Assembly (NCBI GenBank): GCA_964433325.1
Contig: CAYSPY010000005.1
Location: 15,953-79,952, forward strand
Reading direction: 5' to 3'
DNA: 64,000 bases
Source of the DNA: an uncultured Candidatus Peribacteria bacterium
GTDB lineage: Bacteria > Patescibacteriota > Gracilibacteria > Peribacterales > Peribacteraceae
Each line of letters opens with the position of its first letter. Positions within the stretch are counted from its first letter, which is position 1. Positions 30,427-61,868 of the stretch are shown one piece after another. The notes under the pieces are model-generated. The model saw nothing but the letters and a program-made list of their open reading frames with translations. It made no database searches and was not told the origin of the DNA. A program made the translations under genes and the position numbers.

Positions 30427-30759
30427 ATGGATGCTTTTTCTCTTCCTCCAGATCTGCCTTCGCATTTTGAGGAGTACGAAATGTATCAGCAGCTGCGAAA
30501 TGCTATCGATACCTATACTACTGAACAGGAAAGTGTGCATCGAACGCTGTTTCTTGCTGCACGATCATTTTGGAGTGACGTACATACAATCTGTACCTTG
30601 TATAGTGAAAATGCGCCAGATAAACAGCCTGCAATCGCTCTACTGAAAGAGGCAGTTCACACTCTTCCATTGGACAGCATGGATCGTGAACAGATTGTAG
30701 AAACAATTGAGGAGATGGATTCGTGGGGAGCGCCATTCGAAGATGACGACGATTATTAG
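30427..30759 (+). CDS. Hypothetical acidic protein (110 aa)
   Basis: ORF directly after nusG. Its 3' end overlaps the 3' end of the convergent murJ by 4 nt. No motif recognised. Confidence 0.5.
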   Translation: MDAFSLPPDLPSHFEEYEMYQQLRNAIDTYTTEQESVHRTLFLAARSFWSDVHTICTLYSENAPDKQPAIALLKEAVHTLPLDSMDREQIVETIEEMDSWGAPFEDDDDY

Positions 30760-32060: not shown

Positions 32061-32191
32061 CTAATTATAATAGCATGATTCTTTTAAATATCCGTTTTCC
32101 GCTACCCGCTAACCGTCGAGCGACGGAAAACTGATGACGGATAGCGGAGTTGTCGTCCAACATCATTCACGCGGTGCTAGAGTGTTTGCCT

Positions 32192-34830: not shown

Positions 34831-34924
34831 GATAAAAGATTCAAGTGATCCAGATGATTCGTAGGGTCCGGATGAAATGGAAGAGTGTATAGTATACACG
34901 AACATCTGAGTTCTTCTATTGTCC

Positions 34925-35380
34925 ATGCCCTCCCAATCAGACATCCAACCCATCAGCAAGCAGCTGACGATCGTTATCGGCCTTACGGTCGTGGGGTTTA
35001 TGGCATTCGGACTCGCACTATCGTTTTACCGAAACATCTTATTTGAAAAGACACTCCAAGACATTCAGGCACAAAATGACCGCATCGCGCTAGAAATTCA
35101 AAAGGGATACAGAGACCTAGAGTATTACCGTTCCACGCAGTACAAAGACAAATTTGCCAAGGAAAACCTAAACCGCATCAATGCAGGGGAACATTTAGTA
35201 CTACTAAATGAACCACCTATTGATGACAGCACAGCAGCAACATCAGTCGACGATATCTTGGATAAAGCACGACATGAGGCCGCATTTGAAGAATATCTGC
35301 GCCAGTTGCCCGTATGGGAACACTGGAAAATGTATATGTTCCACAAAGAAACCGTCGAAGAATTGAAGAAAACGTTATAA
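34925..35380 (+). CDS. Septum formation initiator-like protein (FtsB/DivIC family)
   Basis: N-terminal TM, then a coiled coil (LQDIQAQNDRIALEIQKGYRDLEYYRS) and ..KFAKENLNRINAGEHLVLL.., typical of FtsB/DivIC. It is divergent from murC. Confidence 0.62.
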   Translation: MPSQSDIQPISKQLTIVIGLTVVGFMAFGLALSFYRNILFEKTLQDIQAQNDRIALEIQKGYRDLEYYRSTQYKDKFAKENLNRINAGEHLVLLNEPPIDDSTAATSVDDILDKARHEAAFEEYLRQLPVWEHWKMYMFHKETVEELKKTL

Positions 35381-36792: not shown

Positions 36793-38607
36793 TTACCTCT
36801 TTAACACACTCAAAAACGCTTCCTGGCTCAAATTCACTTTGCCCATCTGTTTCATACGCTTCTTCCCCTTCTTCTGCTTATCCAGCAGTTTATTCTTACG
36901 TGAGACGTCACCTCCGTACAAATACCCCGTCACATCTTTGCGCATAGCTCCAATTGTTTCACGTGCGACAACCTTGCCACCAATCGCTGCTTGAATCGAG
37001 ATTTCAAACATTGCACGGGGAATCGACTCTTTTAGTTTTTTACAGACAATTTCCCCGACCGCATGTGCTTCGCTGCGGTGCACAATAGTGGAAAGTGCTT
37101 CTGCAGGTTCACCAAGCAGCAGAATCTGTAACTTCACCAAATCCCCTGCTTTGTACCCCAGTGGTTCATAGCTCATCGAGCCATACCCTTCTGTTGACGA
37201 TTTCAGTTTATCGAAGAAGTCGAGCACGATTGCCTGGAGCGGCACATCAAACCGAAGCAGCGATGTGCCCGCATCCAGATATTCCAGCGTGTGATAAACC
37301 CCACGACGCTCCTGCACCATTGTCATGACGGTCCCTACATCTTCACTGCGACACACCACTTCCAACTGAACCCATGGTTCACGCACTTCGTCGATGTAGG
37401 TTGGGTCTGGGAAGTCCGCTGGGTTACTGATGCGAGCAACATTCGGCTCATCGTGTTTAAGCAGACTAGAGCGAACAATGCTCGCTGCCTGCTTAACAGT
37501 GAGTTTTACTTCGTACATTACGCTCGGCGCGGTAACGATCAGGTCACAGTTATACTCACGCTCCAATCGTTCTTGGATAATGTCTAAGTGTAGGAGGCCC
37601 AAGAATCCACAGCGAAACCCGTTTCCGAGTGCGGCGTTGCGTTCGGGCTCGATGCTGAGCGCTGCATCATTGAGCGAGAGTTTCTCGAGTGCATCACGCA
37701 GATCGGGGTACTGATCGGCTTCGCTTGGGTACAAACCCGCGAACACCATCGGCTGAACCTGCTTATAGCCAGGCAGTGGCGCTAAATCCGGCCGAGAACC
37801 AACGGTATCACCCACCCGCACCTGTCGGACATCCTTCAAACCCGTAACGATGTACCCAATCTGACCTTCTTCGAGTGCGTCATCGGGAATAAATTTCGGC
37901 GAGAAGAACCCAACCTCGAGGAGTGGGAATTGCGTTTGAGTTCCAAGGAAGTGCGCATTCATCCCCTTCTTCAACTTCCCTTCCATCACGCGCACGTATG
38001 CAACTACTCCACGATACGGATCGACTGCGGCATCAAAAATAAGGGCGCGCGTATTTCCTTCTACCTTTGGACGATTTGGCGCAGGAATGCGCTCGATGAC
38101 TGCCTGCAATACTTCGTCTACTCCCCTACCATCTTTCGCGGAAATCTTGAGGATATCCTCTTTTTTACACCCAAGAAGCTTTACAACTTCCTCGCTCACA
38201 CGTTCGGGGTCTGCCGCGGGGAGGTCAATTTTATTCAGAACCGGGATAATCGTTAAATCATGTTCCATTGCCATCATCAGCACTGCGAGGGTTTGCGCTT
38301 GAATGCCCTGTGACGCATCGATGAGCAATACCGCCCCTTCGCATGCTGCAAGTGATCGGCTTACTTCGTAGCGAAAGTCGGTGTGGCCAGGTGTATCAAT
38401 CAGGTTGAACTGCACGCCTTTGTATTCCATGCGTACCGGTGTCAGCTTGATGGTAATGCCGCGTTCGCGTTCCAACTCCATCATGTCGAGGGTCTGTTCT
38501 TTCATTTCGCGCTTTTGCAGCGTTCCAGTCATCTCAATCATACGATCGGACAAGGTCGACTTGCCATGATCGATATGCGCGATGATGCAAAAATTGCGAA
38601 TGTCCAT
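36793..38607 (-). CDS. lepA: Elongation factor 4 (LepA)
   Basis: MDIRNFCIIAHIDHGKSTLSDR.., DTPGHTDF, NKIDL, and the LepA-specific C-terminal domain (..GKKRMKQMGKVNLSQEAF..). Start trimmed to the ATG at 38607. Confidence 0.95.
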   Translation of the reverse strand: MDIRNFCIIAHIDHGKSTLSDRMIEMTGTLQKREMKEQTLDMMELERERGITIKLTPVRMEYKGVQFNLIDTPGHTDFRYEVSRSLAACEGAVLLIDASQGIQAQTLAVLMMAMEHDLTIIPVLNKIDLPAADPERVSEEVVKLLGCKKEDILKISAKDGRGVDEVLQAVIERIPAPNRPKVEGNTRALIFDAAVDPYRGVVAYVRVMEGKLKKGMNAHFLGTQTQFPLLEVGFFSPKFIPDDALEEGQIGYIVTGLKDVRQVRVGDTVGSRPDLAPLPGYKQVQPMVFAGLYPSEADQYPDLRDALEKLSLNDAALSIEPERNAALGNGFRCGFLGLLHLDIIQERLEREYNCDLIVTAPSVMYEVKLTVKQAASIVRSSLLKHDEPNVARISNPADFPDPTYIDEVREPWVQLEVVCRSEDVGTVMTMVQERRGVYHTLEYLDAGTSLLRFDVPLQAIVLDFFDKLKSSTEGYGSMSYEPLGYKAGDLVKLQILLLGEPAEALSTIVHRSEAHAVGEIVCKKLKESIPRAMFEISIQAAIGGKVVARETIGAMRKDVTGYLYGGDVSRKNKLLDKQKKGKKRMKQMGKVNLSQEAFLSVLKR

Positions 38608-38681
38608 GCCGGAGCATCCTAGTGAAAAACAGCTGATAATGCCAGAACCAGCCTCCTTTTTGTACTTTTGAGAACATCCAC

Positions 38682-41579
38682 CTATTTTCGACTGCCTTTC
38701 ATCGTTTCGACTGACGGAGCAATAGTTACAGCAGCTTTGGGGTGCATACGACTCCACTCCAAAAAATTCATCTGGGACGTCCCCCCGACATCCGCAACAG
38801 CCTGAATTTCGTGTTTAAGCCCAGCAATTTCTCGTGCGGTCTGGTATCGATGTACACGAACAATCCACTGTGAAGGATCTGGCCCTTTACATTCAATACA
38901 GGTCATCGTGAGAATATTCAGACGGTAATGTGACCGCTTGTCCCACGCAGGCAGCACCTCTTGCAACAGCACAATATCTGCATGACCCGCAGCTTGTTCT
39001 TGTTGCAGCGGAGCCTGGAAAGCTTTCTGTAGCAGAATATATGGCCATTCATCGGGCATCTTATGGTCGCGGAAATCGCGAACCGCTTCGGGGTCTATCT
39101 GGAGCGACGCATATAGATGCTGACGAGGGACGGGGAACATTTGGGCCTCTACAGGTAAGACCTTTTTATAAGGTGAGACCGTTTCAGATTCCTGTCGCAC
39201 TGCATCGGTAAATCGGTCGCGGATCTTCATCATTTCCTCTCTAGTTACTTCCTGCCCCGTCGCAATGCGCTGACGAAGTTCAGCAAACAACAAGTTAATG
39301 TCATGATCCGGCGGCAGAGCTAATGCAGCAGCTTCTGCTGCCGCCATCAAGGAACGCTTATAAAAATGTGAGCGCATGTCGACAATCTTCCCATCTGGTG
39401 TAAAAAGAGAGGAGAACAGCACATTTTTCACATCGTGTGTGATTTTTTCATGCTTCACTAAGCTTGTCATATTACGTGCGAGCACGGCGCGTTCAGCCTT
39501 GCCTTCTGTCCTTGCCTGCAAAATATCGTCACGTTCGGCTAAGCGTGTAATTTCGGCTGCAATTCCCTTCTGTGCTTTTGATGTGAGTGTCGAATGATCT
39601 TTTTCCCCAATCCATTCCTTCTTGTTATAAATACCCAGATGACGAAATACAGCGGTATCTCGTGCAATTTTATCAGTCATTGTGCGGTACGTTTTCCACG
39701 CAGCGACCAATTGAACATCTTCAGGATTTTTGGATGAACTAAAGGAATCAATATATGCCTTAGCCTTTCCCTGGGACGTGGAACGATCATCTTCCATCCG
39801 TTTCAGCGCGCTATCGGGTGACTCATCGATATCGTCAGCGGTTGCCCAATGGAGTAAATCGAGAGACTTCGCATCAACTAAGACGTCACGAGCCTCCAAC
39901 ATCGCCCCGATTTCTCTTTCCAACTGAGCCGCAAACTGAACATTCGCCGCATACATAAATGCCTGACGATCGGACCATGCACCTGTATCCGCCTTTTCCA
40001 ACTGAAACAACTTGCGTGCAAGTGGATTCCATTCGACCGCAATCGCGTGATCCACCTGCGCATTCCAATCGCTCATGCCATTCATTTTTTCGCGTGCCAA
40101 TGATGGCCGCGATCCCTTTCTGGATCGGAGGGTAAGTAATTGCTGCGATAAATACGAGAACGCGTCACGCTCTGGGTGTACCTGCATGCCGGGAATTCCT
40201 ACTTCACCAAGAAGGAATTTAGAACTATCCAGAATACTTCCACCCGATGTGACATCGAGAATATCATTCGCTGCACCTTTTACCGGACCGTCAGGAATAG
40301 ATTCGTCGATATTGGTCACAAGACGATCAATGAGATGTGATAGTCCGAATGCAATCAGCAATGCTGCCGTAAATTGAATAACCGGATTTTTGGGCAGACG
40401 TGCCAAACTTGCTAAACGTGTGCGTGAAAGAATGTTTGCAGACATCTCAAGCATGGCGCCGCTCGCAGCACTTGTTGCCATGTACGATGCAAACATCATG
40501 CTCGCTTTCAGTTTATTATCACTCTGGTGGACGTACATCATGTAGAGCATCACGGTGACCGGGCTTTCCACTGCGAACATATTCTTCCAAAATTCCCTAC
40601 CGACTGGTGATTTGTCCACACTCCGTAAAACCGCAGACAACGCAGGGGCTTTGGATCCAATCATCTTGCTTGCACCCTCATACCCCGCGAGCATTTTTGC
40701 ACGAAGTGAAGAATCCAATGAGCGCATCCATTCGGGTGCACGGACAACAGACTTGCCGAATTTAAGAGTTTCCCCACCTTCTTCCGCCACTTCCTGAGCT
40801 ACAATACCCAAATAGAGCAGAGCTTTTGACGGTTCTTTTTCGGGCTTTTTACGTACCGCCCCTTCGTACACGCGGCGCTGCATTAAAAAGGACCCAATAG
40901 TTCTGAGGGCATTTGCACGATCTTCTGCAGTTAGTCCCTTTTCCCAGCCGACAGTAGGGTACAGCTCTGCATCACGCATATTGAGCAGCGATAGATTGAA
41001 AACGCTATCGATCAACTGATATTGGCGCATCTGGAGGGATCGATACTTCATTTGCAAGTCAGGTGCATCACCCGGCGCTTCTGGCAACGGAGCAGCCAGT
41101 GCTTCTACAACCGACGCAAACCCTTCCTGCGACCCGGAAATGCCCAATTCTTTTTCGAGCACGGGTAAAAATTTTGCAGCTTCAGGATCTTTCATCAGCG
41201 TTGAAAGTGTTGTTCTAGCAGTCTCCGTACAATCACGTTCATACACATCAAGCTCTGTAATCAGAGTCTCTGCAACCGAATCAATGAGGGACATCTCCTC
41301 TGCAGAAAATGTTAGCATGAACTTCTCAGTTCGATCAGTAAACAATGTGACATTTTGCTGTAGCACTCTCTGGCGTTCCTGTAATGCCTCATCTGCTCCT
41401 TCGGGAAGCATAAAAAGAGGATGCTGTTCGTACACAAGAACAGAATGAAGACGATCAATTTTCCCAGTTAATGCCGCTTCCTTTTGCTCTTTTAGTGTAG
41501 TGAGCGCTTTGCGCTCGCTCTCGAACTCTCCGAAAGTCCGGGTGCGGGGTGCGCCGGCGTTTGGTTTTTCGGATGCCAT
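38682..41579 (-). CDS. Large ORFan protein (965 aa), mostly helical, with a hydrophobic cluster around residues 335-416
   Basis: Uninterrupted 2.9-kb ORF, 12 nt after the upstream ORF. Hydrophobic segments are VTVMLYMMYV, MMFASYMATSAASGAMLEM and VIQFTAALLIAFGLSHLI. No catalytic or NTP-binding motif recognised. Confidence 0.8.
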   Translation of the reverse strand: MASEKPNAGAPRTRTFGEFESERKALTTLKEQKEAALTGKIDRLHSVLVYEQHPLFMLPEGADEALQERQRVLQQNVTLFTDRTEKFMLTFSAEEMSLIDSVAETLITELDVYERDCTETARTTLSTLMKDPEAAKFLPVLEKELGISGSQEGFASVVEALAAPLPEAPGDAPDLQMKYRSLQMRQYQLIDSVFNLSLLNMRDAELYPTVGWEKGLTAEDRANALRTIGSFLMQRRVYEGAVRKKPEKEPSKALLYLGIVAQEVAEEGGETLKFGKSVVRAPEWMRSLDSSLRAKMLAGYEGASKMIGSKAPALSAVLRSVDKSPVGREFWKNMFAVESPVTVMLYMMYVHQSDNKLKASMMFASYMATSAASGAMLEMSANILSRTRLASLARLPKNPVIQFTAALLIAFGLSHLIDRLVTNIDESIPDGPVKGAANDILDVTSGGSILDSSKFLLGEVGIPGMQVHPERDAFSYLSQQLLTLRSRKGSRPSLAREKMNGMSDWNAQVDHAIAVEWNPLARKLFQLEKADTGAWSDRQAFMYAANVQFAAQLEREIGAMLEARDVLVDAKSLDLLHWATADDIDESPDSALKRMEDDRSTSQGKAKAYIDSFSSSKNPEDVQLVAAWKTYRTMTDKIARDTAVFRHLGIYNKKEWIGEKDHSTLTSKAQKGIAAEITRLAERDDILQARTEGKAERAVLARNMTSLVKHEKITHDVKNVLFSSLFTPDGKIVDMRSHFYKRSLMAAAEAAALALPPDHDINLLFAELRQRIATGQEVTREEMMKIRDRFTDAVRQESETVSPYKKVLPVEAQMFPVPRQHLYASLQIDPEAVRDFRDHKMPDEWPYILLQKAFQAPLQQEQAAGHADIVLLQEVLPAWDKRSHYRLNILTMTCIECKGPDPSQWIVRVHRYQTAREIAGLKHEIQAVADVGGTSQMNFLEWSRMHPKAAVTIAPSVETMKGSRK

Positions 41580-41591
41580 AGAGTTGTATCG

Positions 41592-43862
41592 TTATTTTTT
41601 ACCTTTCACACTGGAGTTTGGGTCAGATCCTGGTGTTTTGTTAGGATCACCAGTTGTTGGGTCTACATTTGCATCAACTCCTGCTTGGGCACCAGCACCA
41701 ACAGTAGCATTAGGGCTCGCATCTCCTACTGTTTTGGCAGCACGGCGCTGCAACGCTTCAACGTGACTGACGGCCTTCGCGATATCGGCATCGTTATACC
41801 CGGCACCCTTCAAAGCTTTACGAAGGGCATCCGAGTCTTCCGTCGCCGGGCCAAGAATTCGGGCAACGTCACGAATATCGCTATATCTGGTCTTAAGAGC
41901 CTTTGCCATGTTCGATAATTCACGAGCAGGAACCGACTGAACAATCGCTTTTGCATTACGAACCATACGACCACCTTCAAGTGGCCAATGGAAACGACGA
42001 CCGAGACGATCATATTCACCCAAAATTTTTGTTACCTCTTGCTGAGCGGCCATAATTTTCTCGTCCGTAACTCCCATCGGCAAATTAAACTTTGTACGAA
42101 TCTCCGAAATTCCCATTTTGCTAAACTTCTCCAATGCTGTGACGTTCATGGTTGTATACCCGCGAATCGCGAGTGACGTCCCTGTTACTGCAACGCCGGC
42201 TACTCCGCTGATCGCAAGAATCGACATTGGAATTCCGAGTTCGGGGAAGTTCGTGACAAACGATACCCAACGATTCCACCAATGACCCAAGGCATCGACA
42301 CCGGATTCTGCCAAGTATTCACGCACGTTCATGAGCTCACGCTGGAACTCTTCGTTGTACCCGAGTTCTTTCAGTTCCTTTTCGACTGTTTCCGTATCAC
42401 TAGTAGCTAGGTTCACGAGCCTGCGCATAACGCGCAGCTGTAACTCAATTGCCAATTTAGATTCACCGTATTTATCCAGAAGTGCCACGGCTTTGTACGC
42501 AAGTAGCAAATCCCCACCTCTCGTTTCCATCAGGTAATACATATCAAATGCATCACGTGCACTCATTTTCTTGCTGACAATTAACTCATTCAACTTCGCT
42601 GTGATGAGCTTATTCGTTGCATCCTCGGGTTCCATGCTCATAAATGTGACACGCGACAAACGGTCGACCGTCTCCTGCTTAGACACACCGTCACATACAC
42701 CCATAATCATGCGCTTTTGTGATTCGTTAAAGTTTTGGATAAAGGCAGGAAGGCGCTCGATACTCATCTTATCTGCCTCAAAACCGCGGAAAAACTTAAT
42801 CACTTCCGCTGCATCTTTCCGAAAGACTCCACGCTCTTCTTCGGTTCCGCCACTCAATTTTTCCAAAGGAGCAAGCATCACCTCAGCCATTCGGTCTGGC
42901 AGCATGTCTTTGTCCAAAAAGAGATTCTTGGCAAAGCTACGCATGTCGGGCAAGTTTCCGTTGAGCAGCCCTTTGGCATTCACTGCAACTTCCTCCACGA
43001 GTGTTCCCAGGACAGAACCTTGCGCACAGCAATCGAGTGCTTCGGCAATGGTCATGTTAGAGATCTTCTTATCTTTCGCATTCAAATCTGCATATTGCTG
43101 AATCGTATCTTGGTACTTAGCCATATAGCCGGCAAGAAACCGAACAGAATCGATTGTTTCTTGGGGCCAAGGTGCGCCATCGGGCATTGCAAACCCTGCG
43201 GCTTCCAGTAAACGGGTACATGGCTCGGCATTCGCACCTGCATTAACGCATGGAAGCAAATAATCCATACTTAAACGTAAACGAACTGCTGCCATCACAA
43301 TTTCAGTTGTCTGAGGAGCAAGCTCACGCGGAGAATCCTTCAAACCTGTAGCTTTCTGAACGTCATATTGTAGTGGGAGCATTTTCTCGGTGACACGGAC
43401 CGATTGCTCTTCGATCTCACGCGTTTTCACGTATTTAGCCAAATATTCAGGGAGGGGAGAACCTGAAGGCTTTCTCCCTTTATGCATATGTTCATAAATA
43501 TCACGCTCATCAACGTACTTTGCAACTGTCCGTAGAACAGTTGCCTGCTGTACTGGGGAAAGGGCCATTTTTTTATCCACAAAGGCTAGCGGCGCAAGGA
43601 GCCCCTTCGCTGTTTGCATCCGCATCTCAGAAAGAGCCATATACCTGCGGGTCAATTCAAATTGAAGGACATCACCTTTGGAAACAGATGCTTGAGGAAG
43701 TGAAAGATCTGCTCGTACCAAATCCATCATCTGTCGCCAGCTCTCTTTATCTGGGACATCCAGTGCATCGGCAACGTCCGAAGAGCGCTGCACGAATGCC
43801 GGGAGAACTTCCGGTTGCTTTGGCCGTTCGACACTGGATTTTGGTTTTTCTGGAGGAGCCAT
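41592..43862 (-). CDS. Large ORFan protein (756 aa), helical, with a bilobed hydrophobic segment around residues 528-566
   Basis: Uninterrupted 2.3-kb ORF. WWNRWVSFVTNFPELGIPMSILAISGVAGVAVTGTSLAI is flanked by long charged helical regions. The tail is Gly/Ala/Asp/Pro-rich and basic. Confidence 0.8.
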   Translation of the reverse strand: MAPPEKPKSSVERPKQPEVLPAFVQRSSDVADALDVPDKESWRQMMDLVRADLSLPQASVSKGDVLQFELTRRYMALSEMRMQTAKGLLAPLAFVDKKMALSPVQQATVLRTVAKYVDERDIYEHMHKGRKPSGSPLPEYLAKYVKTREIEEQSVRVTEKMLPLQYDVQKATGLKDSPRELAPQTTEIVMAAVRLRLSMDYLLPCVNAGANAEPCTRLLEAAGFAMPDGAPWPQETIDSVRFLAGYMAKYQDTIQQYADLNAKDKKISNMTIAEALDCCAQGSVLGTLVEEVAVNAKGLLNGNLPDMRSFAKNLFLDKDMLPDRMAEVMLAPLEKLSGGTEEERGVFRKDAAEVIKFFRGFEADKMSIERLPAFIQNFNESQKRMIMGVCDGVSKQETVDRLSRVTFMSMEPEDATNKLITAKLNELIVSKKMSARDAFDMYYLMETRGGDLLLAYKAVALLDKYGESKLAIELQLRVMRRLVNLATSDTETVEKELKELGYNEEFQRELMNVREYLAESGVDALGHWWNRWVSFVTNFPELGIPMSILAISGVAGVAVTGTSLAIRGYTTMNVTALEKFSKMGISEIRTKFNLPMGVTDEKIMAAQQEVTKILGEYDRLGRRFHWPLEGGRMVRNAKAIVQSVPARELSNMAKALKTRYSDIRDVARILGPATEDSDALRKALKGAGYNDADIAKAVSHVEALQRRAAKTVGDASPNATVGAGAQAGVDANVDPTTGDPNKTPGSDPNSSVKGKK

Positions 43863-43873
43863 AAGATGAAAGG

Positions 43874-44524
43874 TTATCCGCCCATTTCGAGCCCCTTAAG
43901 AATCATATCAGCCTCCTGCAGACTTGGGATCTCGGTAGGAACCGGCGCTGCGGGGGGTGGGGCAGGCATTTCTGGAATATTCATTCCTTCAAGTGCATTT
44001 CCAATCCCCTCTTTGGCTGTTTCTGCGGCTCCTGTCGCCATATCTGCAGCCTGTCCGGCCACCTCGCCTGCGGCCTCTGTTGCCTTGGATACCGCATTGC
44101 CAGTCATGTAGGACGTAAGCCAATCACGAAGCCTACCAACAACAACTGTCCCCGCACCCGTGTAATACATGGCGGCAACACCCGCGAGTGTTAGTACGAC
44201 ACCAGTCGCAATGTACGGATGTGCTTCAATAGCCCCCCATACACGTCGTGGGACATACGTAACGTAATCCCACAGAGTCCACCTCTTTTTCGCTTCTGCC
44301 TCTTGGCGATATAGAGCCAAATCCTCAATAAGATTATCAACGTCGCCATTAAGAGTCGGGTCATACTCTTTCAAGCTACGAACCAGCTTCTCCTTTTCAT
44401 CGGTCACCTGCACTAGTTCGTCTAACCGTTCCAGTTGGTATCCTCGCTCATTCAAACGGTCGAGGTATCCCTGCATCTTATCTGGTGCGCGTACGAATGG
44501 CCGCTCAAATACGGATTTGATCAT
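43874..44524 (-). CDS. ORFan protein (216 aa) with central hydrophobic hairpin
   Basis: Coiled-coil-like N-terminus, YIATGVVLTLAGVAAMYYTGAGTVVVG, then an Ala/Gly/Glu-rich and Pro-rich tail. It starts 2 nt after the upstream stop. Confidence 0.7.
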   Translation of the reverse strand: MIKSVFERPFVRAPDKMQGYLDRLNERGYQLERLDELVQVTDEKEKLVRSLKEYDPTLNGDVDNLIEDLALYRQEAEAKKRWTLWDYVTYVPRRVWGAIEAHPYIATGVVLTLAGVAAMYYTGAGTVVVGRLRDWLTSYMTGNAVSKATEAAGEVAGQAADMATGAAETAKEGIGNALEGMNIPEMPAPPPAAPVPTEIPSLQEADMILKGLEMGG

Positions 44525-44526
44525 AC

Positions 44527-44934
44527 TTATACGTGGGTAGCAGAAAGATTGATGGTCAGGAGCTCATGACGAATAACCGTGAGCGTTGCGAGCGCTTCAA
44601 TATCTTCGTCTTTGGAAATCTCACTAAGAAGTGTGGCAATGAATGCAGCAACTCCTCGTGCACCTATCGTGAAATACAATTCCTTCTGCACATCTGGTCC
44701 AATGTGTTCAAAAGAAATTTTATCGGGAGATTCTCCTGCCGAAATTTGATCGAGAATCGTTTTTACACCCGGGTGGAACTTAAAATCCGCGAGCGAGATA
44801 CGCATGCGTATCTGCCGCAAGGATTCATAACAGTCGAGTGTTTCACTTTGAACAGTCCACCCCTCACGGAGAGACTCCGGAACCGCTTGAAACAAAGATT
44901 GTTCGTCCGCGGTTAGAAAAATAGTGTTATTCAT
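44527..44934 (-). CDS. Small acidic ORFan protein (135 aa), first of four ORFan genes
   Basis: Soluble-looking and acidic. It starts 14 nt after the pyruvyl-transferase gene. No family recognised. Confidence 0.65.
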   Translation of the reverse strand: MNNTIFLTADEQSLFQAVPESLREGWTVQSETLDCYESLRQIRMRISLADFKFHPGVKTILDQISAGESPDKISFEHIGPDVQKELYFTIGARGVAAFIATLLSEISKDEDIEALATLTVIRHELLTINLSATHV

Positions 44935-44948
44935 TGCTTCCCATCATA

Positions 44949-45932
44949 TCACGAATGCACATCAGACTCAATTAGACGCAGTGCAGAAGAAAGACTAAGC
45001 CGCCCATGTTCAACCATGGAACAGAGTTGGGGCACATTTGCCTTTCCACTGTTAATCAGCTGTTGCAACTCATACATCTTATCTCCTTTACCCTGTGGGA
45101 CGATGTCTATTTCGATTCCAGAAGCAAGAGCTGCAAGTGCACCATGGAAACGCTGCGATAACACAATCGCACTCGTGCCGACTCCCTTTAATAACTCTCG
45201 GAGTGTTCTGGCGGGAATAATTGTTGCAGGGAGGCCAAGCTCACGCTGCAGACGATTAGCGATAGCCTGCTCACCCGCATCATCTGGCTGCATCAAGAGA
45301 ATTTGTAGATGATGGATATATGGACGCATGCGAAGCAGTGAAATTGCACTCTGCATAAAGGCATCAGAGGAATTTGCGCGTGGAATTAATGTGCATACAT
45401 TTTTTGTTCCATGAACGACTTTTTGCTTTTCCATAACGGAAAATACTGGGTCAAATGTTTGAATAATTTCTGTACTCAATCCCCAAGAAGCTACCCGCTC
45501 ATACGATGCAGTGTCTCGTACGGATATATACCGAGCGTGACGTGCAACAAAGCGTGCAAGACGCTCCCCTACCTTTGTTTTATATGGCCCCATCCCTTGG
45601 AATGCGAGAAAGACTGGCTTACGAAGAAAGAATGCAAGACCAGCGTGCCAAGCCCATAAAAAACAGGCTTTTACGGATTCTACATCAGTAAAAAGTGATC
45701 CACCGCCAAATACCACCGCATCACAGCCGCGGTACGCAGTGATCGTCTTACGCCATCCTCCTTGCCTCAATGAATGTAGGCCAAAGGGTAAGCGTGGCAA
45801 TTCATGCTGCGCTTTAGGAGATGCAGAAAGCACAGTCCAGGTAACTTCCGGGAAAGCATCCAAGAAATAATCGCGCAGAGCTTCGTCTCCTAAGTTATCG
45901 ACGCCGTAGTTCCCGATCAGCACACATTTCAT
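44949..45932 (-). CDS. Polysaccharide pyruvyl transferase family protein (CsaB-like)
   Basis: MKCVLIGNYGVDNLGDEALRDYFLDAF.., ..VVFGGGSLFTD.., ..SQRFHGALAA.. match the PS_pyruv_trans family to which CsaB belongs. Confidence 0.8.
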   Translation of the reverse strand: MKCVLIGNYGVDNLGDEALRDYFLDAFPEVTWTVLSASPKAQHELPRLPFGLHSLRQGGWRKTITAYRGCDAVVFGGGSLFTDVESVKACFLWAWHAGLAFFLRKPVFLAFQGMGPYKTKVGERLARFVARHARYISVRDTASYERVASWGLSTEIIQTFDPVFSVMEKQKVVHGTKNVCTLIPRANSSDAFMQSAISLLRMRPYIHHLQILLMQPDDAGEQAIANRLQRELGLPATIIPARTLRELLKGVGTSAIVLSQRFHGALAALASGIEIDIVPQGKGDKMYELQQLINSGKANVPQLCSMVEHGRLSLSSALRLIESDVHS

Positions 45933-45938
45933 AAGAGC

Positions 45939-45947
45939 ACTATAGCA
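45939..45947 (-). promoter_or_regulatory. Extended -10 element TGCTATAGT in front of the pyruvyl-transferase/ORFan operon
   Basis: Minus strand reads ..ATTGCTATAGTgctcttATG, so the -10 ends 6 nt before the ATG (leaderless layout). Confidence 0.4.
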
Positions 45948-46001
45948 ATAGGCCAGCAGAAAAATCGCTTACGTCCGTATCTATAAACGCTGTGTTGTAT
46001 G

Positions 46002-46535
46002 TTACTCAGCTGGCTTTTCCTCTGTTGGCGCTTCGGCCGTTGTTGCCTCTGCAACTGGAGCTTCGACAGTCTGAACCACTGCTGGAGCCTCTTCTACTGG
46101 AGCTTCGATGATCTGTGCCTCCTGCTCGGCTACCTGTGCCTCTGTAACAGGCTCTGCAACTGCAACCGCGAATTCACCTTCTGTCGTAAAGCGCTCGCTT
46201 AGGCGGGCAGATTTACCACTGCGCCCACGGAGGAAGAATAGTTTTGCGCGGCGAACGTTGGCAACCTTCTTCACTTCTACCTTTTCAATGGATGGGGAGT
46301 GCAAGGGGAAGACTTTCTCGACACCAATACCAGACACAACACGGCGAACCGTAAAGGATGCATCTGTTGGAACATGGCCGTTATGCACGGAAATAACCAA
46401 CCCTTCGAAAATTTGCACACGCTCTTTGCCACCTTCCTGGATTTTCTCGTGCACACGCACGGTATAGCCAGGTTTCACAGAAGGAACCGGGCGGGCAAAC
46501 GGGGCAGCCAATGCATGCAAAATGTGCTTGGTCAT
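46002..46535 (-). CDS. rplS: 50S ribosomal protein L19 with an acidic C-terminal extension of about 55 aa
   Basis: PGYTVRVHEKIQEGGKERVQIFEGLVISVHNG...FTVRRVVSGIGVEKVFPLHSPSIEKVEV..VRRAKLFFLR is a canonical L19. The tail is EGEFAVAVAEPVTEAQVAEQEAQIIEAPVEEAPAVV... Confidence 0.93.
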   Translation of the reverse strand: MTKHILHALAAPFARPVPSVKPGYTVRVHEKIQEGGKERVQIFEGLVISVHNGHVPTDASFTVRRVVSGIGVEKVFPLHSPSIEKVEVKKVANVRRAKLFFLRGRSGKSARLSERFTTEGEFAVAVAEPVTEAQVAEQEAQIIEAPVEEAPAVVQTVEAPVAEATTAEAPTEEKPAE

Positions 46536-46693: not shown

Positions 46694-47284
46694 CTACTTC
46701 CCCTTTGCCTCATCAATCTTGTCCTGAATGGTATTAAGAACAATCAAATGGCGTGGATCATTGAGGATTTCCTGGACAAACCTGTCTTTAAGACTCAAGC
46801 GATAGAGGAAGTCTGCCTCCGAGAAAATCGAGTATTTTACGTATTTAAGGTTAGGATCCTGTGCCAAAAGTGCCTCCAGCACCTCTTTTTTCACATCACC
46901 AACAAGCAAAAGATCTACTTTGCTCTCGGTTCCACAGAGGTTTCCAGCCAAGAGGACCAATTCTACTCCATTAATAGCCTTTAAACTGGCTACGAATGGG
47001 CTTTCACCCTGTACAGCCTTGCTAAAGAGATTCCGTAAATCAGCGTAAAGCGGGAAATCGACATCAATACGGTAATACTTCTTGCGGTTCTTGTGGCGTG
47101 CCTTAACCAGTCCTACTCGGCGGAGGTTTTCGAGTTCGCGGCGGATGGAGTTGATTTGTTCGTTCAGCAGACGGGTAAGTTCACGAATGAAATATTCCTC
47201 CTCGGGGTGGAGAAGAAAAGTGGAAAGTAATTTGACCCGGGTCTGTGAGCTAAACAGAGCTTTAAGAACTGATGCGGATGACAT
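46694..47284 (-). CDS. Winged-helix (ArsR/MarR-like) transcriptional regulator with C-terminal domain
   Basis: ..LFSSQTRVKLLSTFLLHPEEEYFIRELTRLLNEQINSIRRELENLRRVGLVKARHKNRKKYYRI.. is a classical wHTH. It is divergent from the TrbL-like gene. Confidence 0.7.
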   Translation of the reverse strand: MSSASVLKALFSSQTRVKLLSTFLLHPEEEYFIRELTRLLNEQINSIRRELENLRRVGLVKARHKNRKKYYRIDVDFPLYADLRNLFSKAVQGESPFVASLKAINGVELVLLAGNLCGTESKVDLLLVGDVKKEVLEALLAQDPNLKYVKYSIFSEADFLYRLSLKDRFVQEILNDPRHLIVLNTIQDKIDEAKGK

Positions 47285-47345
47285 ATGTTCACAAACAGTA
47301 TTCAGGATTAATGCAATAGTGCAAGAAAAGTGAACAAACTTGAGT

Positions 47346-47438
47346 ACACAATTTATACTCTCGTTTTTTGGCTTAAAGTAAACAAATTAATAGGTTTAAA
47401 TCACTTACACTAAAATTTGTTGAACACAATTTATACTC
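47346..47438. promoter_or_regulatory. Two direct copies of a 15-mer ACACAATTTATACTC (candidate operator sites)
   Basis: Exact copies at 47346-47360 and 47424-47438, 78 bp apart. They sit in the AT-rich 254-bp gap between the divergent regulator and the membrane-protein gene. Confidence 0.5.
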
Positions 47439-47523
47439 GCATAAATTCCAGATTAGTGTTGTAACAATATTTTGAAGGTATGGGAATAGAGCCGAGTTCA
47501 GAATTGAGTAAAACGCCCAAAAA

Positions 47524-47532
47524 TGCTACAAT
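47524..47532 (+). promoter_or_regulatory. Extended -10 element TGCTACAAT
   Basis: Ends 6 nt before the ATG at 47539, which is ideal spacing for a leaderless mRNA. It is identical to the 9-mer at 19529-19537. Confidence 0.45.
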
Positions 47533-47538
47533 ATCTAG

Positions 47539-49302
47539 ATGTATTCACGCACGACCTCCTTCGTTCGATCAGCCCTCGGCACTGTCCTCTTGTTGGCTCC
47601 GATGGCAGCTCATGCCCAGGCAAATTTCAATGGAAATATTCAACAGACGTTCGGTCTCATCATTCAAACTGCGATTGAGACACTTAACCTTTTAACGTGG
47701 GTCGTGTTTATTTTCTTAAACCAACTCCTCGATCCATTGGTCATTTTCAACAATGGTGCAATGTCCCCCATGTTGAATGAGATTTGGCAGCTCTCACGAA
47801 ATATTATGAACGTCGCATTCGCCCTCGTATTGATTGGCGCTGCGATCTATACAGTGGTTACTGCAAAAAAAGACTTCGTGGCATCGAACATGAAAAAGTT
47901 CGTCATGGCCGTGGTGCTCGTCAACTTCTCGTGGTTTGTCCCAATGGTTATCTTGGACGTTGCGAACGTTGCAGCCACAACAGTGTTTAACCTCCCCTCT
48001 GTATTAGGACAAAATAACGTCTGTAAGTTTCGAACAGCAACGAAGCCACCAGGAACTGCAGCGGCTAACTGCCAGGCAGTCCCTGCTCCAAACCCTGTCC
48101 CCCCCGGGCATATTCCACAATTCGACTGTGACTGCATCATGGCAGTTGATGCAGCATTTTTCGTCTCACAAAATCAGCTAGGACAATTCCCCGCTGCTCA
48201 AGGCTGGGCATGTTACTTGGGACAAACAATGTGTGTGCATCTGCAGCCATTGAATGGTAATAACATTGCACCGCATTCCTACATTCTAAATGGATTAATT
48301 CTGAATCATGCACGCTTAGCTGGTGTTGCATCGTTGCCCCCTGCGGTGAATGGACCCGCCGTTTCTGCGCTCATCATGTACTTTTTGCAAATGGGAGTAC
48401 TCCTTGTTATCCATATCGCATTATTCTTCCCACTTGCAGCGATGGCACTCGCCTTTGCCATTCGCATTCCTGTGCTCTGGTTTACGATTGCCTTCATGCC
48501 GTTCTGGATTCTAACACTGCTACCACTTGGTAGTATTTTTGGCGATTACCCAAAGCAACTAGGTGACTATTTCTTAAAAGCAGCATTCCTCCCCGCCATT
48601 TGTGGCGTACCCCTCACGATCGGATTTATTATGATCAACGCAGGGCAGCAAGCCGCAACATTCGGCAATTTGCAGCAAATTGGATTCCGTCTTACGAATA
48701 ACATCAGCGATTTCTTTGAATTGCTCTGGCTGATTATGTGCTTGGGTATTTTCTATATGGGCACGTTCTCTGTGCTCAAGAAATACGGTGGCGTGATGGC
48801 AAAGGGTGCCGAAGCGATTGAAGGTGCTGGTAAGAGCTTGGGGTCAATGGCAATGCAAGCACCATTACATGCGATTCCAATGCCGATTCCAGGAGGAGGA
48901 AGTCTTCTGAACTTCATGAAAACTCATAGCCCTGCCGCCCTCCAAGCACAGTTCAATGCAGGCGTAGCAAACAATACGCCATTGTCACAAATGTTCTCAC
49001 CGCAGAATCAGCAGAATCAGCAAACATTACAAGCTACAGCTCAGGCTAATAAGAATAATGTCGCTCACATGACAACACTCGACACACATATACAAGCGTT
49101 GACGGCTGCCGTGACACAAGCCGACAAAGACAGGGCAATGCAAAACATAAGCACTCACATGGGCGGTGTGGCAATAAACGCCGGAAATGTGAAGACGCAG
49201 CTACAGGCATACACTCAGCAGCTCAATCTTGCGGGTGCAGGAACAGGTGCGGCTAAAACTGAATTTGGCAATTTGCAAGCAAGAGTAAACACTTTGCCGT
49301 AA
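47539..49302 (+). CDS. Signal-peptide polytopic membrane protein with TrbL/VirB6-like topology and a Gln/Asn/Ala-rich tail
   Basis: Signal peptide ..LLLAPMAAHAQA and about 7 hydrophobic helices. A loop of about 110 aa carries 7 Cys, and the C-terminal tail of about 170 aa is low-complexity or coiled coil. The family assignment rests on topology only. Confidence 0.8.
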   Translation: MYSRTTSFVRSALGTVLLLAPMAAHAQANFNGNIQQTFGLIIQTAIETLNLLTWVVFIFLNQLLDPLVIFNNGAMSPMLNEIWQLSRNIMNVAFALVLIGAAIYTVVTAKKDFVASNMKKFVMAVVLVNFSWFVPMVILDVANVAATTVFNLPSVLGQNNVCKFRTATKPPGTAAANCQAVPAPNPVPPGHIPQFDCDCIMAVDAAFFVSQNQLGQFPAAQGWACYLGQTMCVHLQPLNGNNIAPHSYILNGLILNHARLAGVASLPPAVNGPAVSALIMYFLQMGVLLVIHIALFFPLAAMALAFAIRIPVLWFTIAFMPFWILTLLPLGSIFGDYPKQLGDYFLKAAFLPAICGVPLTIGFIMINAGQQAATFGNLQQIGFRLTNNISDFFELLWLIMCLGIFYMGTFSVLKKYGGVMAKGAEAIEGAGKSLGSMAMQAPLHAIPMPIPGGGSLLNFMKTHSPAALQAQFNAGVANNTPLSQMFSPQNQQNQQTLQATAQANKNNVAHMTTLDTHIQALTAAVTQADKDRAMQNISTHMGGVAINAGNVKTQLQAYTQQLNLAGAGTGAAKTEFGNLQARVNTLP

Positions 49303-49310
49303 AACCTTAC

Positions 49311-50459
49311 ATGTCATCTTCTTCTCCAAAGCAGGCTTTCACCGTCTCCGGCTCACCCTTGGAGCAAGAACAGACGAATGCACGACAACAGCGAAGCAGG
49401 CTGGAGGCAAATTTATCGACAACTCCTATTAATCAGGCTCGTTTCTTAGGTACGCACCCTCAAAAGGCAGCAGAGATTGTCCGCCTACGTACCATGAGTG
49501 CCCCTCAGCGCATGCAAGAAGTACGCGACACTTATGCAGAATCTTTAAACGAATCGCTGCCTAGGCTACGAAGCGGTTTTGCAGAAGCAAACCGCAATGC
49601 GCAGAATGCAGACCCAAGTGATACACAAGAATCACCACTCGAGCATATTAACGCCATTGCTCAAGCAATCATTAAACCTCCAAAAGGTGCTGCACCCGCA
49701 GGTACACACCGATATTTGACGGAGTATGACCTAAACTACCGACAAATCGAGGCTGACCAAAGCTACCTTCGCACATTGGCTGGCACACGTAGTGACTTGC
49801 AGGCCGACCTTTTGCAGCTCGACCGTGCGCTGGGGGAATTGATGTATAAAGACCCCCGTTACGGTATTCGCCAACTGGAAAAGCGCCACGAGGAAGATAA
49901 TGTGGATGGAAAGATTTATAAAGCTCTACAGGGCGGTCTATTCGTTGCAGCAGCATTTGCAGCTGTGCTTGGGCTCGGCGTAGGCATTGCTCAACGAAAA
50001 CTAAGTGCCGCGACGCTTATGTATGCCGGTGTTGCTCTACTCGCCTACCCTGGCGTATGGGATCAGCTGTTTTCAGGAAAGGATAAGATCATGGTAAAAG
50101 AAATTAACGGATCACTGAATGACCCTCTCTTTAAATCAATCCGCAAGAAATACAACGTACAAGGGCGTGTATGGGCTAATTACGCACGAAACACCTTACA
50201 GGAACCATCTTCAACCAAGTCACTGATCTCAGCCCTCAAATCGAACAATCTACACTCCAAGGGGTCCCCCGAACTCGAACAGCAGATTAAAGAGTACGTA
50301 CAATCCATGGGTGGCAGCAAAGATGATAAAGCGAATATGCAACGCATGATTGACGACGAACAGTTCGTTGATTTCGCACAAATCCTTTTAACACTCCACA
50401 ACGAAGATGCGCAGGCGATTGCGTACGATTACATCAAGACAGGCGGTGGCACACTGTAA
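49311..50459 (+). CDS. ORFan protein (382 aa) with central bilobed hydrophobic segment
   Basis: Starts 8 nt after the previous gene. Helical N-terminal domain, then GLFVAAAFAAVLGLGVGIAQRKLSAATLMYAGVALLAYPGVW, then a helical C-terminal domain. Confidence 0.7.
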   Translation: MSSSSPKQAFTVSGSPLEQEQTNARQQRSRLEANLSTTPINQARFLGTHPQKAAEIVRLRTMSAPQRMQEVRDTYAESLNESLPRLRSGFAEANRNAQNADPSDTQESPLEHINAIAQAIIKPPKGAAPAGTHRYLTEYDLNYRQIEADQSYLRTLAGTRSDLQADLLQLDRALGELMYKDPRYGIRQLEKRHEEDNVDGKIYKALQGGLFVAAAFAAVLGLGVGIAQRKLSAATLMYAGVALLAYPGVWDQLFSGKDKIMVKEINGSLNDPLFKSIRKKYNVQGRVWANYARNTLQEPSSTKSLISALKSNNLHSKGSPELEQQIKEYVQSMGGSKDDKANMQRMIDDEQFVDFAQILLTLHNEDAQAIAYDYIKTGGGTL

Positions 50460-60445: not shown

Positions 60446-61852
60446 TCACGCTAATTTTAATTCACCTTCCAATGCCCGAATTTCGCGGAGCAACTGCGGG
60501 TCATTGAGCTGACGTGACTCCATTTTGGCCATCGCATTCATCACTGTGGTGTGATCGCGACCAGAGAAAAGTTCGCCGATACGCACGTAGCTGAGACGCA
60601 GGTATTTCTTACAGAGGAACATCGCGATCTGGCGTGGAATCAAGATTTCGCGCACACGTGACTGCCCCAGCATGTCTGCTGTGGAGACGGAGTAGTAGCG
60701 ACTGACGGATTCCATCACATCTTGGAAAGTCGTGTTTCTGGCTGCCACACTTTCAAATCCTGGTGTTTCCTCGCGCTCATGTGGGTCCTTGTTCAACTTC
60801 CGCATAATTTCGGCAATGCTCTTTACCGTCGGCATGCGCTGCTCGAGTTCATACTGCGCAACCGCCTGCATCAAGATGCCTTCAAGTTCGCGAATATGCT
60901 TGGTCGCATGCTCTGCGATAAACTGGAGCACCACCATATCCATAAAGATTTCATACTCTTTTGCTTTCTCGACCAAAATCGCTAAGCGTGTTTCATAGTC
61001 TGGCAGCGAGACATCGGCAATCATGCCGCGCTCGAAGCGAGATACCAGGCGATCTTCTAGTTGTAACTCTTGTGGAGGACGATCAGCCGAAAGGATGATC
61101 TGCTTCCGTTCCTCGTAGAGCGTATTAAAGGTATAGAAAAATTCTTCCTGCGTGCGCTCCTTATTTGCGAGGAACTGAACGTCATCGATAATAAGCACAT
61201 CGACACTGCGATACCTGCGACGGAATTGCTCCCACTTCTGGTTCATCACAGTTTCAATCACTTGGTTGGCAAAGTCTTCGGCGGTCGTATACACAACCGT
61301 CGATTTTGGCATCTGCTTGAGGATTGCGTTCCCTGTGGCCTGCAAAAGATGAGTTTTCCCAAGGCCCACTCCACCGTACAAAAAGAGCGGATTATATTTT
61401 CCACCTGGCTGCATCGCGACAGCTTGGCACGCTGCGTAGGCCAAGCGATTATTAGAACCCACCACAAAACTTTCCAGGGAGTAGCGAGGGTTCAGGATTT
61501 TGCTGACGATACCTTCCGCCAATTTAACTTCCTGCTTACCGGGTAGCTTTCGCTTTTTTTCTTCGGGGAAAGCTTCCAGCAAATCAAACGTGCGGGACCT
61601 ATCATCTTTCAATCCCCCATCCACCTTATAGACGATTTGAGTGATGGTTGGGTCCATCTCCTGGGCTACCTGCAACGTGACAGCGCGGTAATGCTCCATG
61701 TGCCAGTTAAGGGACATCGGGAGTGGCAGACCAATCATGAGCGTTCCTCCTTCACGATTTAAAATAGCAGTGTCCTTAAACCACGTGATGAACTGGCTGT
61801 GTGGGATTTGGTTCTTGAGCACCCCAAGCATTTGGAGCCACGTACTTCTCAT
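60446..61852 (-). CDS. dnaA: Chromosomal replication initiator protein DnaA
   Basis: GGVGLGKTHL (Walker A), LIIDDVQF, the sensor motifs, and the C-terminal DNA-binding domain (..RQIAMFLCKKY.. ..GRDHTTVMNA..). The ATG at 61852 (MRSTWLQML..) aligns best with known N-termini. The ORF track extends to 61894, overlapping the upstream gene. Confidence 0.93.
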   Translation of the reverse strand: MRSTWLQMLGVLKNQIPHSQFITWFKDTAILNREGGTLMIGLPLPMSLNWHMEHYRAVTLQVAQEMDPTITQIVYKVDGGLKDDRSRTFDLLEAFPEEKKRKLPGKQEVKLAEGIVSKILNPRYSLESFVVGSNNRLAYAACQAVAMQPGGKYNPLFLYGGVGLGKTHLLQATGNAILKQMPKSTVVYTTAEDFANQVIETVMNQKWEQFRRRYRSVDVLIIDDVQFLANKERTQEEFFYTFNTLYEERKQIILSADRPPQELQLEDRLVSRFERGMIADVSLPDYETRLAILVEKAKEYEIFMDMVVLQFIAEHATKHIRELEGILMQAVAQYELEQRMPTVKSIAEIMRKLNKDPHEREETPGFESVAARNTTFQDVMESVSRYYSVSTADMLGQSRVREILIPRQIAMFLCKKYLRLSYVRIGELFSGRDHTTVMNAMAKMESRQLNDPQLLREIRALEGELKLA

Positions 61853-61868
61853 GCCTGCGGCAGCCTGA

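Follow-up and report, generated by a model that had tools for sequence, protein, structure and literature searches.

We have analysed a 64,000-nucleotide (nt) stretch of DNA from an uncultured Candidatus Peribacteria bacterium (contig CAYSPY010000005.1, positions 15,953 to 79,952; the window, in what follows), and within it a locus of three genes: one for a winged helix-turn-helix (wHTH) protein and, divergent from it, a tight two-gene unit made up of gene 1, which encodes a polytopic membrane protein, and gene 2, which encodes a membrane-hairpin protein. Gene 1 founds a Peribacteria-wide membrane-protein family without a fold match in the Protein Data Bank (PDB), and the three genes belong to the core of the class, where they lie near the origin and are passed on vertically. 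We tentatively propose, rating the chance at somewhat less than even, that gene 1 encodes, on the chromosome, a highly diverged VirB6-like subunit that belongs to a dispersed type IV secretion system (T4SS) of the Patescibacteria type. A preliminary description of this DNA had given the three open reading frames (ORFs) coordinates, strands and lengths that we find to be exact, had noted the divergent arrangement, which turns out to be conserved across relatives, and had called gene 1 TrbL/VirB6-like on the basis of its topology. That last suggestion is supported in part, by one fold match to a TrbL_4 protein, but by nothing in sequence, profile or PDB fold searches.

The fold searches were run with Foldseek and covered approximately 350,000 PDB chains and the BFVD library of predicted viral structures. 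In the two collections together, the AlphaFold2 (AF2) model of gene 1 (predicted local distance difference test score, pLDDT, 78.9; predicted template modelling score, pTM, 0.65) has only one significant structural neighbour, gp153 of Bacillus phage G, which is its top match in BFVD (E 3.4e-4, probability 1.00), with a template modelling (TM) score of 0.55 normalised to the target of 319 amino acids (aa). A generic helix-bundle artefact is unlikely, since no such match came from the PDB, whose collection of membrane proteins is far larger. The phage protein matches PF19597, TrbL_4 ('conjugal transfer protein TrbL'), at E 1.8e-11 and 44 bits, the gathering cutoff being 27. In the phage G cluster, read at JN638751 84000-96200 (L089), its neighbours are gp150, a T4SS pilin (PF18895, TrbC), gp155, a VirB4-like ATPase with the domains P-loop_TraG, AAA_10 and CagE_TrbE_VirB, and gp156, a coupling-protein-like ATPase. 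On a related jumbo-phage contig of ~156 kb (L091), the same series of ORF sizes is found in the same order around a gp153 homologue, and three further contigs carry homologues of this protein. No plasmid relative of gp153 was found with tblastn, and its family alignment consists of four sequences from jumbo-phage contigs; since BLAST relatives in plasmids are missing, no deeper TrbL_4 profile was available.

The hydrophobic segments of gene 1 and gp153 come in the same order, and an ungapped window that pairs residues 305-334 of the former with 178-207 of the latter shares an arginine, an isoleucine, a tryptophan and a proline. None of the 40 gene 1 homologues compared departs from these four residues, which are kept in three to four of the four gp153 relatives. 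The resulting motif, R-I-x3-W-x6-P, lies in register at the start of the fifth segment in both gene 1 and TrbL_4, and the region is the top, if non-significant, hhalign alignment between the two families. Transitive alignment, again by the top hhalign result, also places together a proline motif that starts a central transmembrane segment, namely LGPxF in TrwI of plasmid R388, LGPL in gp153 and FMPF in gene 1. One structural match between models and a motif-level resemblance would thus fit the protein class that had been proposed beforehand from topology; the link is at the level of the fold only, and it is from this that we infer homology to VirB6.

We take it that GTDB places the Peribacterales, or Peribacteria, in class Gracilibacteria. 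A 2025 survey describes the T4SS of Patescibacteria as chromosomal, related to the conjugation machinery of monoderms and usually without a relaxase, with VirB4, TrsD, PrgI/VirB3, VirB6 and VirB2-like pilins as its parts (PMC12102498). According to the same source, the system is indispensable to the epibiotic growth of Ca. Southlakia epibionticum, the one candidate phyla radiation (CPR) organism that was tested, and virB4 is often near dnaA/dnaN in many Patescibacteria classes (PMC12102498). In Gracilibacteria, the TrsD and VirB3 homologues are mostly not beside virB4, and VirB6 homologues were found to be 'absent', 'suggesting extreme sequence divergence' (PMC12102498). Given the placement of Peribacteria in Gracilibacteria and the reported absence of VirB6 from that class, it is reasonable to see in gene 1 a candidate for the subunit that a dispersed system there would be missing. 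The locus resembles the Patescibacteria systems in its CPR host, in being chromosomal, non-mobile and without a relaxase, and in its proximity to dnaA, as well as in belonging to a group in which the parts are dispersed and VirB6 has not been found. It differs from them in that no VirB4, TrsD, PrgI or pilin gene is seen near gene 1.

The family to which gene 1 belongs is large and narrowly distributed. All 158 homologues recovered with a word index are ~600 aa long and none has a Pfam domain, and those that carry an organism name are all from Candidatus Peregrinibacteria or Peribacteria. A profile search of 1.84 billion protein representatives returned 693 clusters (at 50% identity) with E<1e-30; the best 150 matches were all full-length members of the gene 1 family, and approximately 4,600 matches made up the weak end of the ranking. 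When one genome per species was scanned, gene 1 was found in 181 genomes, essentially all of them labelled Peribacteria or Peregrinibacteria, and the median identity across species loci is ~35%. In all 80 Peribacteria species loci compared the order is fixed as pyruvyl transferase, rplS, wHTH gene, gene 1, gene 2 (where present), infB and DHH, and in the 73 of them whose upstream flank is long enough the wHTH gene and gene 1 are divergent without exception. No homologue of gene 1 was found by tblastn in plasmid or phage records. Fixed synteny and the lack of plasmid or phage homologues together indicate a vertically inherited core locus; to call gene 1 an orphan would be wrong if that were to mean a fragment left by a mobile element. 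The dnaA gene (60446-61894, minus strand; domains Bac_DnaA, DnaA_N and DnaA_C) is ~11 kb from gene 1, so that the locus is origin-proximal. One contig of 2.2 kb that is binned as 'Candidatus Saccharibacteria' (L011, CAYRNU010000070.1) carries a gene 1 homologue with 44% identity; it is probably mis-binned, given the otherwise strict Peribacteria distribution of the family.

The architecture of gene 1 was largely anticipated in the preliminary description, which had noted a signal peptide, about seven hydrophobic segments and a tail rich in Gln, Asn and Ala. The signal peptide is of the Sec type (aa 1-27, MYSRTTSFVRSALGTVLLLAPMAAHA/QA) and is conserved in the family. It is followed by three hydrophobic segments (44-71, 85-111 and 118-152), a Cys-rich loop, four more segments (two spans within 272-335, then 345-369 and 388-414) and the tail. 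The loop (aa 153-271; DNA 47995-48351) was correctly recognised, but it holds six Cys residues (162, 178, 197, 199, 225 and 232) and not seven; the protein has eight in total, and the two outside the loop sit in transmembrane segments. In 40 homologues Cys occurs almost only in the loop, with four to six residues per protein and none in the tail, and this confinement points to a disulfide-bonded extracytoplasmic domain. The tail (aa 415-587; DNA 48781-49299) is ~170 aa long and rich in Ala, Gln, Asn and Thr, which between aa 451 and 587 make up 70 of the 137 residues (22, 18, 15 and 15, respectively). AlphaFold predicts the loop to be beta-rich and the tail helical. Across the family the transmembrane core is conserved, with many invariant polar and Pro residues, and the loop and tail are variable. 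Gene 1 resembles TrbL/VirB6 proteins (PF04610, TrwI of R388) in its polytopic inner-membrane build, its presumably extracytoplasmic loop and its C-terminal extension. Unlike gp153, it is nearly twice as long and has the signal peptide, some 110 aa of Cys-rich loop and ~170 aa of tail. Two lower BFVD matches of gene 1 were also recorded: A0A8S5RVT2 (1389 aa, Siphoviridae sp. ctHip2; E 4e-3, probability 0.99), the second best, perhaps a helical protein of tape-measure type that aligns with the tail, and A7KUX7 (286 aa; TM score 0.50).

On the reading that we favour, gene 1 would be a very divergent, fold-level relative of TrbL/VirB6, of the monoderm TrbL_4 kind, to which three parts have been added: a signal peptide that is cleaved off, an extracellular domain with disulfide bonds, present as an insertion, and a long helical tail in the cytoplasm. 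It would be transcribed from a leaderless-type promoter, together with its fast-evolving hairpin partner gene 2, and would serve as a membrane channel or platform subunit of a chromosomal, non-conjugative T4SS of the Patescibacteria type, a dispersed apparatus whose ATPase and pilin genes would lie elsewhere in the genome. The divergent ArsR-like wHTH protein would bind inverted repeats between the two promoters and would control its own gene and probably also the operon of genes 1 and 2. The presence of four to six Cys residues in the loop only would fit an exposed extracellular domain, and a conserved transmembrane core with a variable loop and tail would fit a channel subunit part of which is exposed and faces the host; gene 1 is on this account a presumptive participant in a T4SS. 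The more specific proposal, that gene 1 is the 'missing' VirB6 of Peribacteria and Gracilibacteria, reshaped into a channel subunit with a signal peptide and complete with a disulfide-rich host-facing domain, a hairpin partner and a wHTH switch, we consider rather unlikely. Should gene 1 be the missing VirB6, the locus would be a core, origin-proximal host-interaction module of these symbionts and a class-wide candidate, with approximately 700 sequence clusters and 181 species genomes, and its defined promoter, likely regulator and exposed extracellular domain would make the question testable. If the fold match is spurious, we are left with one more lineage-specific pair of membrane proteins, of modest interest.

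The features of the locus are listed in Table 1.

Table 1. Genes and intergenic elements of the locus, with positions in the window.
Feature	Position	Strand	Description
wHTH gene	46694-47284	minus	ORF of 196 aa
wHTH promoter-like blocks	47287-47333	minus	columns conserved at 80% or above in the 72-locus alignment
Repeat copy 1, GAGTACACAATTTATACTC	47342-47360	plus	includes the first 15-mer; moderately conserved block
Repeat copy 2, TTGAACACAATTTATACTCGCATAA	47419-47443	plus	covers the second 15-mer; most conserved non-coding block
Gene 1 promoter, sigma-70-type	47504-47532	plus	TTGAGT, 17 nt, TG-extended TACAAT (consensus scan)
Gene 1	47539-49302	plus	ORF of 587 aa, polytopic membrane protein
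Gene 2	49311-50459	plus	ORF of 382 aa, membrane-hairpin protein

Residues 5-87 of the wHTH protein probably form an ArsR/SmtB-like winged helix, with all scores below threshold. NCBIfam NF033788 matches at E 1.9e-6 and 27.6 bits (cutoff 55), Pfam gives weak matches to HVO_A0114 (E 2.7e-4) and TrmB (E 0.011), and a profile of 21 orthologues searched against the PDB reached HlyU and SmtB at E ~0.02. The public names of the members of its cluster are 'ArsR family regulator' or 'wHTH domain-containing protein'. The C-terminal half, of ~100 aa, is without a family assignment and contains a degenerate nucleotidyltransferase-like motif, G..CGTESKVDLLLVGD; a single-sequence AF2 model of the protein (pLDDT 56.7) is too poor for fold searching. 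The likeness to ArsR/SmtB regulators such as HlyU and SmtB therefore lies in the N-terminal 80 aa, which align with them and with NF033788, and in the position of the gene, divergent from a putative target operon with inverted repeats in between, whereas the scores under the family cutoffs and the extra C-terminal domain of ~100 aa set the protein apart. It is also unlike typical local regulators in its extreme conservation across the class: identity to the window protein has a median of 78% and a range of 71-98% in 71 species loci. Its conservation is greater than that of L19 in 69 of 69 loci, of IF2 in 59 of 59, of DHH in 51 of 52 and of LepA in 18 of 22. Such conservation, in a protein whose neighbours evolve fast (median identity 35% for gene 1, and 12-27% for gene 2), suggests a core or global DNA-binding factor. 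That it should exceed L19 and IF2 suggests that these reduced genomes have a core regulator that had gone unrecognised.

Conserved blocks between the wHTH gene and gene 1 were read from an alignment of 72 intergenic regions. On the wHTH side, on the minus strand, there is a -35-like TTGCAC inside TTTTCTTGCACT and a -10-like TGAATACT / TGAGTACT directly upstream of the wHTH ATG; the block GTGCAAGAAA is present in 54 of the 72 regions and GCAAGAAA in 68. These blocks may act as the wHTH promoter, and with the -10-like block so near the ATG the leader would be very short. On the other side, the columns TTGAG-N17-TGCTAtAAT are conserved in the 72 loci and end 6 nt before the ATG of gene 1, which predicts a leaderless or near-leaderless mRNA with a putative start site at or close to the ATG. 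An Rfam scan of the locus found no RNA family.

Between the two promoters lie two exact copies of a 15-mer, ACACAATTTATACTC, at 47346 and 47424 (0.16 expected in shuffles), as had been described. The alignment and a weight matrix show that they are part of a conserved intergenic inverted-repeat motif. The first repeat copy is a 5-base pair (bp) inverted repeat, GAGTA-N9-TACTC, and scores 18.5 with the position weight matrix, compared with 11.4 for the 99th percentile of shuffles. The second copy, which can also be written TTGAACACAAaTTATACTCaCATAA, is the main conserved block, and a weight matrix made from it finds the motif in 71 of the 72 regions, 28 of which have at least two copies. In seven loci the motif lies ~119-171 nt upstream of where gene 1 starts, it is a clear palindrome in several other genomes (for example, GAGTATAAAATATACTC), and in several genomes a related site overlaps the -10/start region of the wHTH gene. 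Of the two promoters in the window, that of gene 1 is the nearer to the second copy, which lies 60-85 bp upstream of the gene 1 -35. It is likely to be an operator of the wHTH protein, and the whole pattern is what would be expected if a dimeric wHTH protein regulated its own gene through an operator that is conserved along with it and that it presumably binds. An apparent palindrome in the consensus, TTTTTGGCTTA..AAGCCAAAAA, occurs in one of the 72 regions and was rejected as an alignment artefact.

A gap of 8 nt separates the stop of gene 1 from gene 2, in agreement with the preliminary description, and the start of gene 2 has no obvious Shine-Dalgarno sequence; gene 2 is probably translationally coupled to gene 1, and the two genes are presumably co-transcribed. 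The protein consists of a soluble N-domain, a two-lobed hydrophobic hairpin at aa ~202-245 (DNA 49914-50045) and a soluble C-domain. Its positional orthologues have the same layout, with 12-27% identity and no invariant column. A sizeable gene 2-like ORF follows gene 1 in 60 of 68 loci, usually within ~40 nt or overlapping it; of these 60 ORFs, 52 encode 360-445 aa, and a central hydrophobic segment is seen in 55. Gene 2 is missing at its usual position in eight of the 68 loci (L026, L048, L061, L072, L073, L078, L079 and L084). There, the stops of gene 1 and infB are 3-189 bp apart. No Pfam or PDB family was found for gene 2. A match to TrbC/VirB2 pilins (PF04956) was seen at E 0.088 in the window protein alone, one of 22 orthologues; we rejected it as a chance reflection of hydrophobicity in a protein of 382 aa that has no signal peptide. 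Gene 2 had also been likened to proteins of the operon at 38.7-44.9 kb. The layout is indeed alike, but a paralogy test against three of them (p216, p756 and p965) gave probabilities below 1%, and we therefore reject paralogy.

Several results weigh against a VirB6-like role for gene 1, beginning with the fold match itself, which is a single hit of one predicted structure on another with a root-mean-square deviation of 20.5 Å. The expectation that gene 1 would match PF04610 failed: the window protein has no Pfam match at E<=1, hence neither to PF04610 nor to PF19597, and none of 40 homologues matches PF04610 or T4SS models at the same threshold, although TrwI of R388, the positive control, matches PF04610 at E 4.9e-50. 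PF19597 is likewise absent from the families listed for the 40 homologues, and NCBIfam gave no T4SS or other relevant family for gene 1 or for these homologues. What Pfam and NCBIfam matches the homologues have are weak and compositional, such as ATP synthase b in nine of 40, on the helical tail. The gene 1 family profile found only coiled-coil noise on the tail when searched against the PDB, and PHROGs was uninformative, gp153 itself having no PHROG match. Family-to-family comparison by hhalign gave a probability of 0.3-2.3% with the gp153 family and of 0.13% with a 25-sequence TrwI alignment, and hmmsearch with the gene 1 profile scored the gp153 relatives and TrwI negatively, at the level of block-shuffled controls. 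These negative profile tests have little power, since hhalign, with shallow alignments, joins even bona fide TrbL_4 to the TrwI/PF04610 families with a probability of only 4.1%. The PDB presumably holds the structure of TrwI within cryo-EM structures of the R388 T4SS. Searched against the PDB with Foldseek, the gene 1 model had no match at E<=0.001 (best E 0.33, TM score 0.10), and there was no T4SS chain among its best 50 matches.

The genomic context tells in the same direction. As had been stated, no VirB4, VirD4 or relaxase domain is found in the window, where we scanned 31 ORFs of 120-965 aa (the three of the locus and most of the larger ones; several ORFs of ~200-240 aa and smaller ones were left out), nor was a T4SS ATPase, VirB3 or pilin domain found among these 31. 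No T4SS gene was seen within 10 kb on either side in three related loci (L001, L003 and L005). The phage protein gp153 sits between pilin, VirB4-like and type IV coupling protein-like genes, whereas gene 1 sits among rplS, infB and other housekeeping genes; and, unlike PF04610 proteins and TrwI, gene 1 lacks a profile match, a PDB fold, a conjugative or T4SS gene context and a plasmid homologue. The absence of gene 2 from its usual place in the eight loci listed above also speaks against the proposal. A 2016 account of five complete Peribacteria genomes describes type II secretion and type IV pili and mentions no T4SS (PMC4736985). Finally, the predicted topology of gene 1 is ambiguous, because the positive-inside rule and the Cys distribution disagree: the count of positive charges conflicts with an extracytoplasmic loop, which the signal peptide, the seven segments and the confinement of Cys to the loop would fit.

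Much of this would be explained if genes 1 and 2 encode lineage-specific envelope proteins unrelated to type IV secretion, for example, a transporter, channel or scaffold that serves attachment at the cell surface or the biogenesis of the wall, the S-layer or a surface polymer, with the fold match being fortuitous or due to convergent helix packing. We regard this as a serious possibility, if one that we are inclined to doubt. It accords with the failure of every sequence and profile method to find a family for gene 1, with the lack of an ATPase or pilin partner nearby, and with a housekeeping and envelope neighbourhood that includes a CsaB-like pyruvyl transferase, SLH-domain proteins, MurJ and a Mur ligase, and, in the neighbouring rplS-to-lepA operon, four further membrane-associated proteins that are specific to Peribacteria. 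The genomes of Peribacteria have been noted to encode many Cys-rich proteins that are exported (PMC4736985), and the invariant polar and Pro residues of the transmembrane core would be no less at home in a transporter or an enzyme than in a channel. Chance or convergence accounts less readily for the fact that the sole significant structural neighbour belongs to the very class proposed beforehand from topology, or for an invariant R-I-x3-W-x6-P in register with the TrbL_4 family. Nor did Foldseek find a transporter fold in the PDB: as far as the model allows, GT-C, LptFG, SecDF, MurJ-like, SEDS and flippase folds, along with other well-sampled membrane folds, are rejected for gene 1. Alternatively, the VirB6-like fold could be genuine but exapted, so that gene 1 has no role in a T4SS and forms an independent membrane device with gene 2, such as a host-contact sensor or receptor, or an uptake channel for host-derived molecules, set by the master-regulator-like wHTH protein. 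This would reconcile the fold match with the complete separation of gene 1 from T4SS genes in 80 genomes, and would make sense of modules atypical of VirB6 (the signal peptide, the Cys-rich extracellular domain and the helical tail of ~170 aa), of the tight pairing with a family-specific partner and of dedicated, conserved cis elements beside an ultra-conserved DNA-binding protein. We nevertheless think exaptation improbable. There is no positive evidence for sensing or uptake, the tail has no match to a signalling domain, and, to our knowledge, VirB6-type proteins occur only in T4SS contexts. Moreover, since T4SS genes are already reported to be dispersed in Gracilibacteria (PMC12102498), separation from them is by itself no argument for a new function.

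A separate question, whose answer does not depend on how gene 1 is read, is whether the wHTH protein is a dedicated regulator of genes 1 and 2 at all, or an essential global or nucleoid-type factor for which the motifs serve autoregulation only. The latter strikes us as unlikely, though by no means far-fetched. A protein that exceeds L19, IF2 and DHH in conservation in essentially every genome evolves far more slowly than its supposed targets; a motif-like site covers its own -10/start region in several genomes; and the 64-kb window contains no further copy of the 15-mer. A purely autoregulatory role is harder to square with the strongest site (Table 1, repeat copy 2), which is nearer the promoter of gene 1 than that of the wHTH gene, and with a divergent arrangement that never varies in the loci where it could be read.

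Beyond the locus, on the minus strand at 36793-46535, is a tightly spaced series consisting of rplS, a gene for a CsaB-like polysaccharide pyruvyl transferase, genes for proteins of 135, 216, 756 and 965 aa, and lepA, and this series is syntenic across Peribacteria. The four proteins have no Pfam domain and no Walker A motif, only central hydrophobic stretches; in two relatives (L003 and L005) a single protein of ~1,600-1,640 aa replaces those of 756 and 965 aa. The window also contains genes for MurJ (30756-32060) and a Mur ligase (33556-34959). SLH-domain proteins are encoded at 20986-22350 and 32150-33571, both on the plus strand, and the gene of the CsaB-like transferase (PS_pyruv_trans) is at 44949-45932 on the minus strand; the SLH and CsaB-like genes suggest that the S-layer of this CPR lineage is anchored to a pyruvylated wall polymer.

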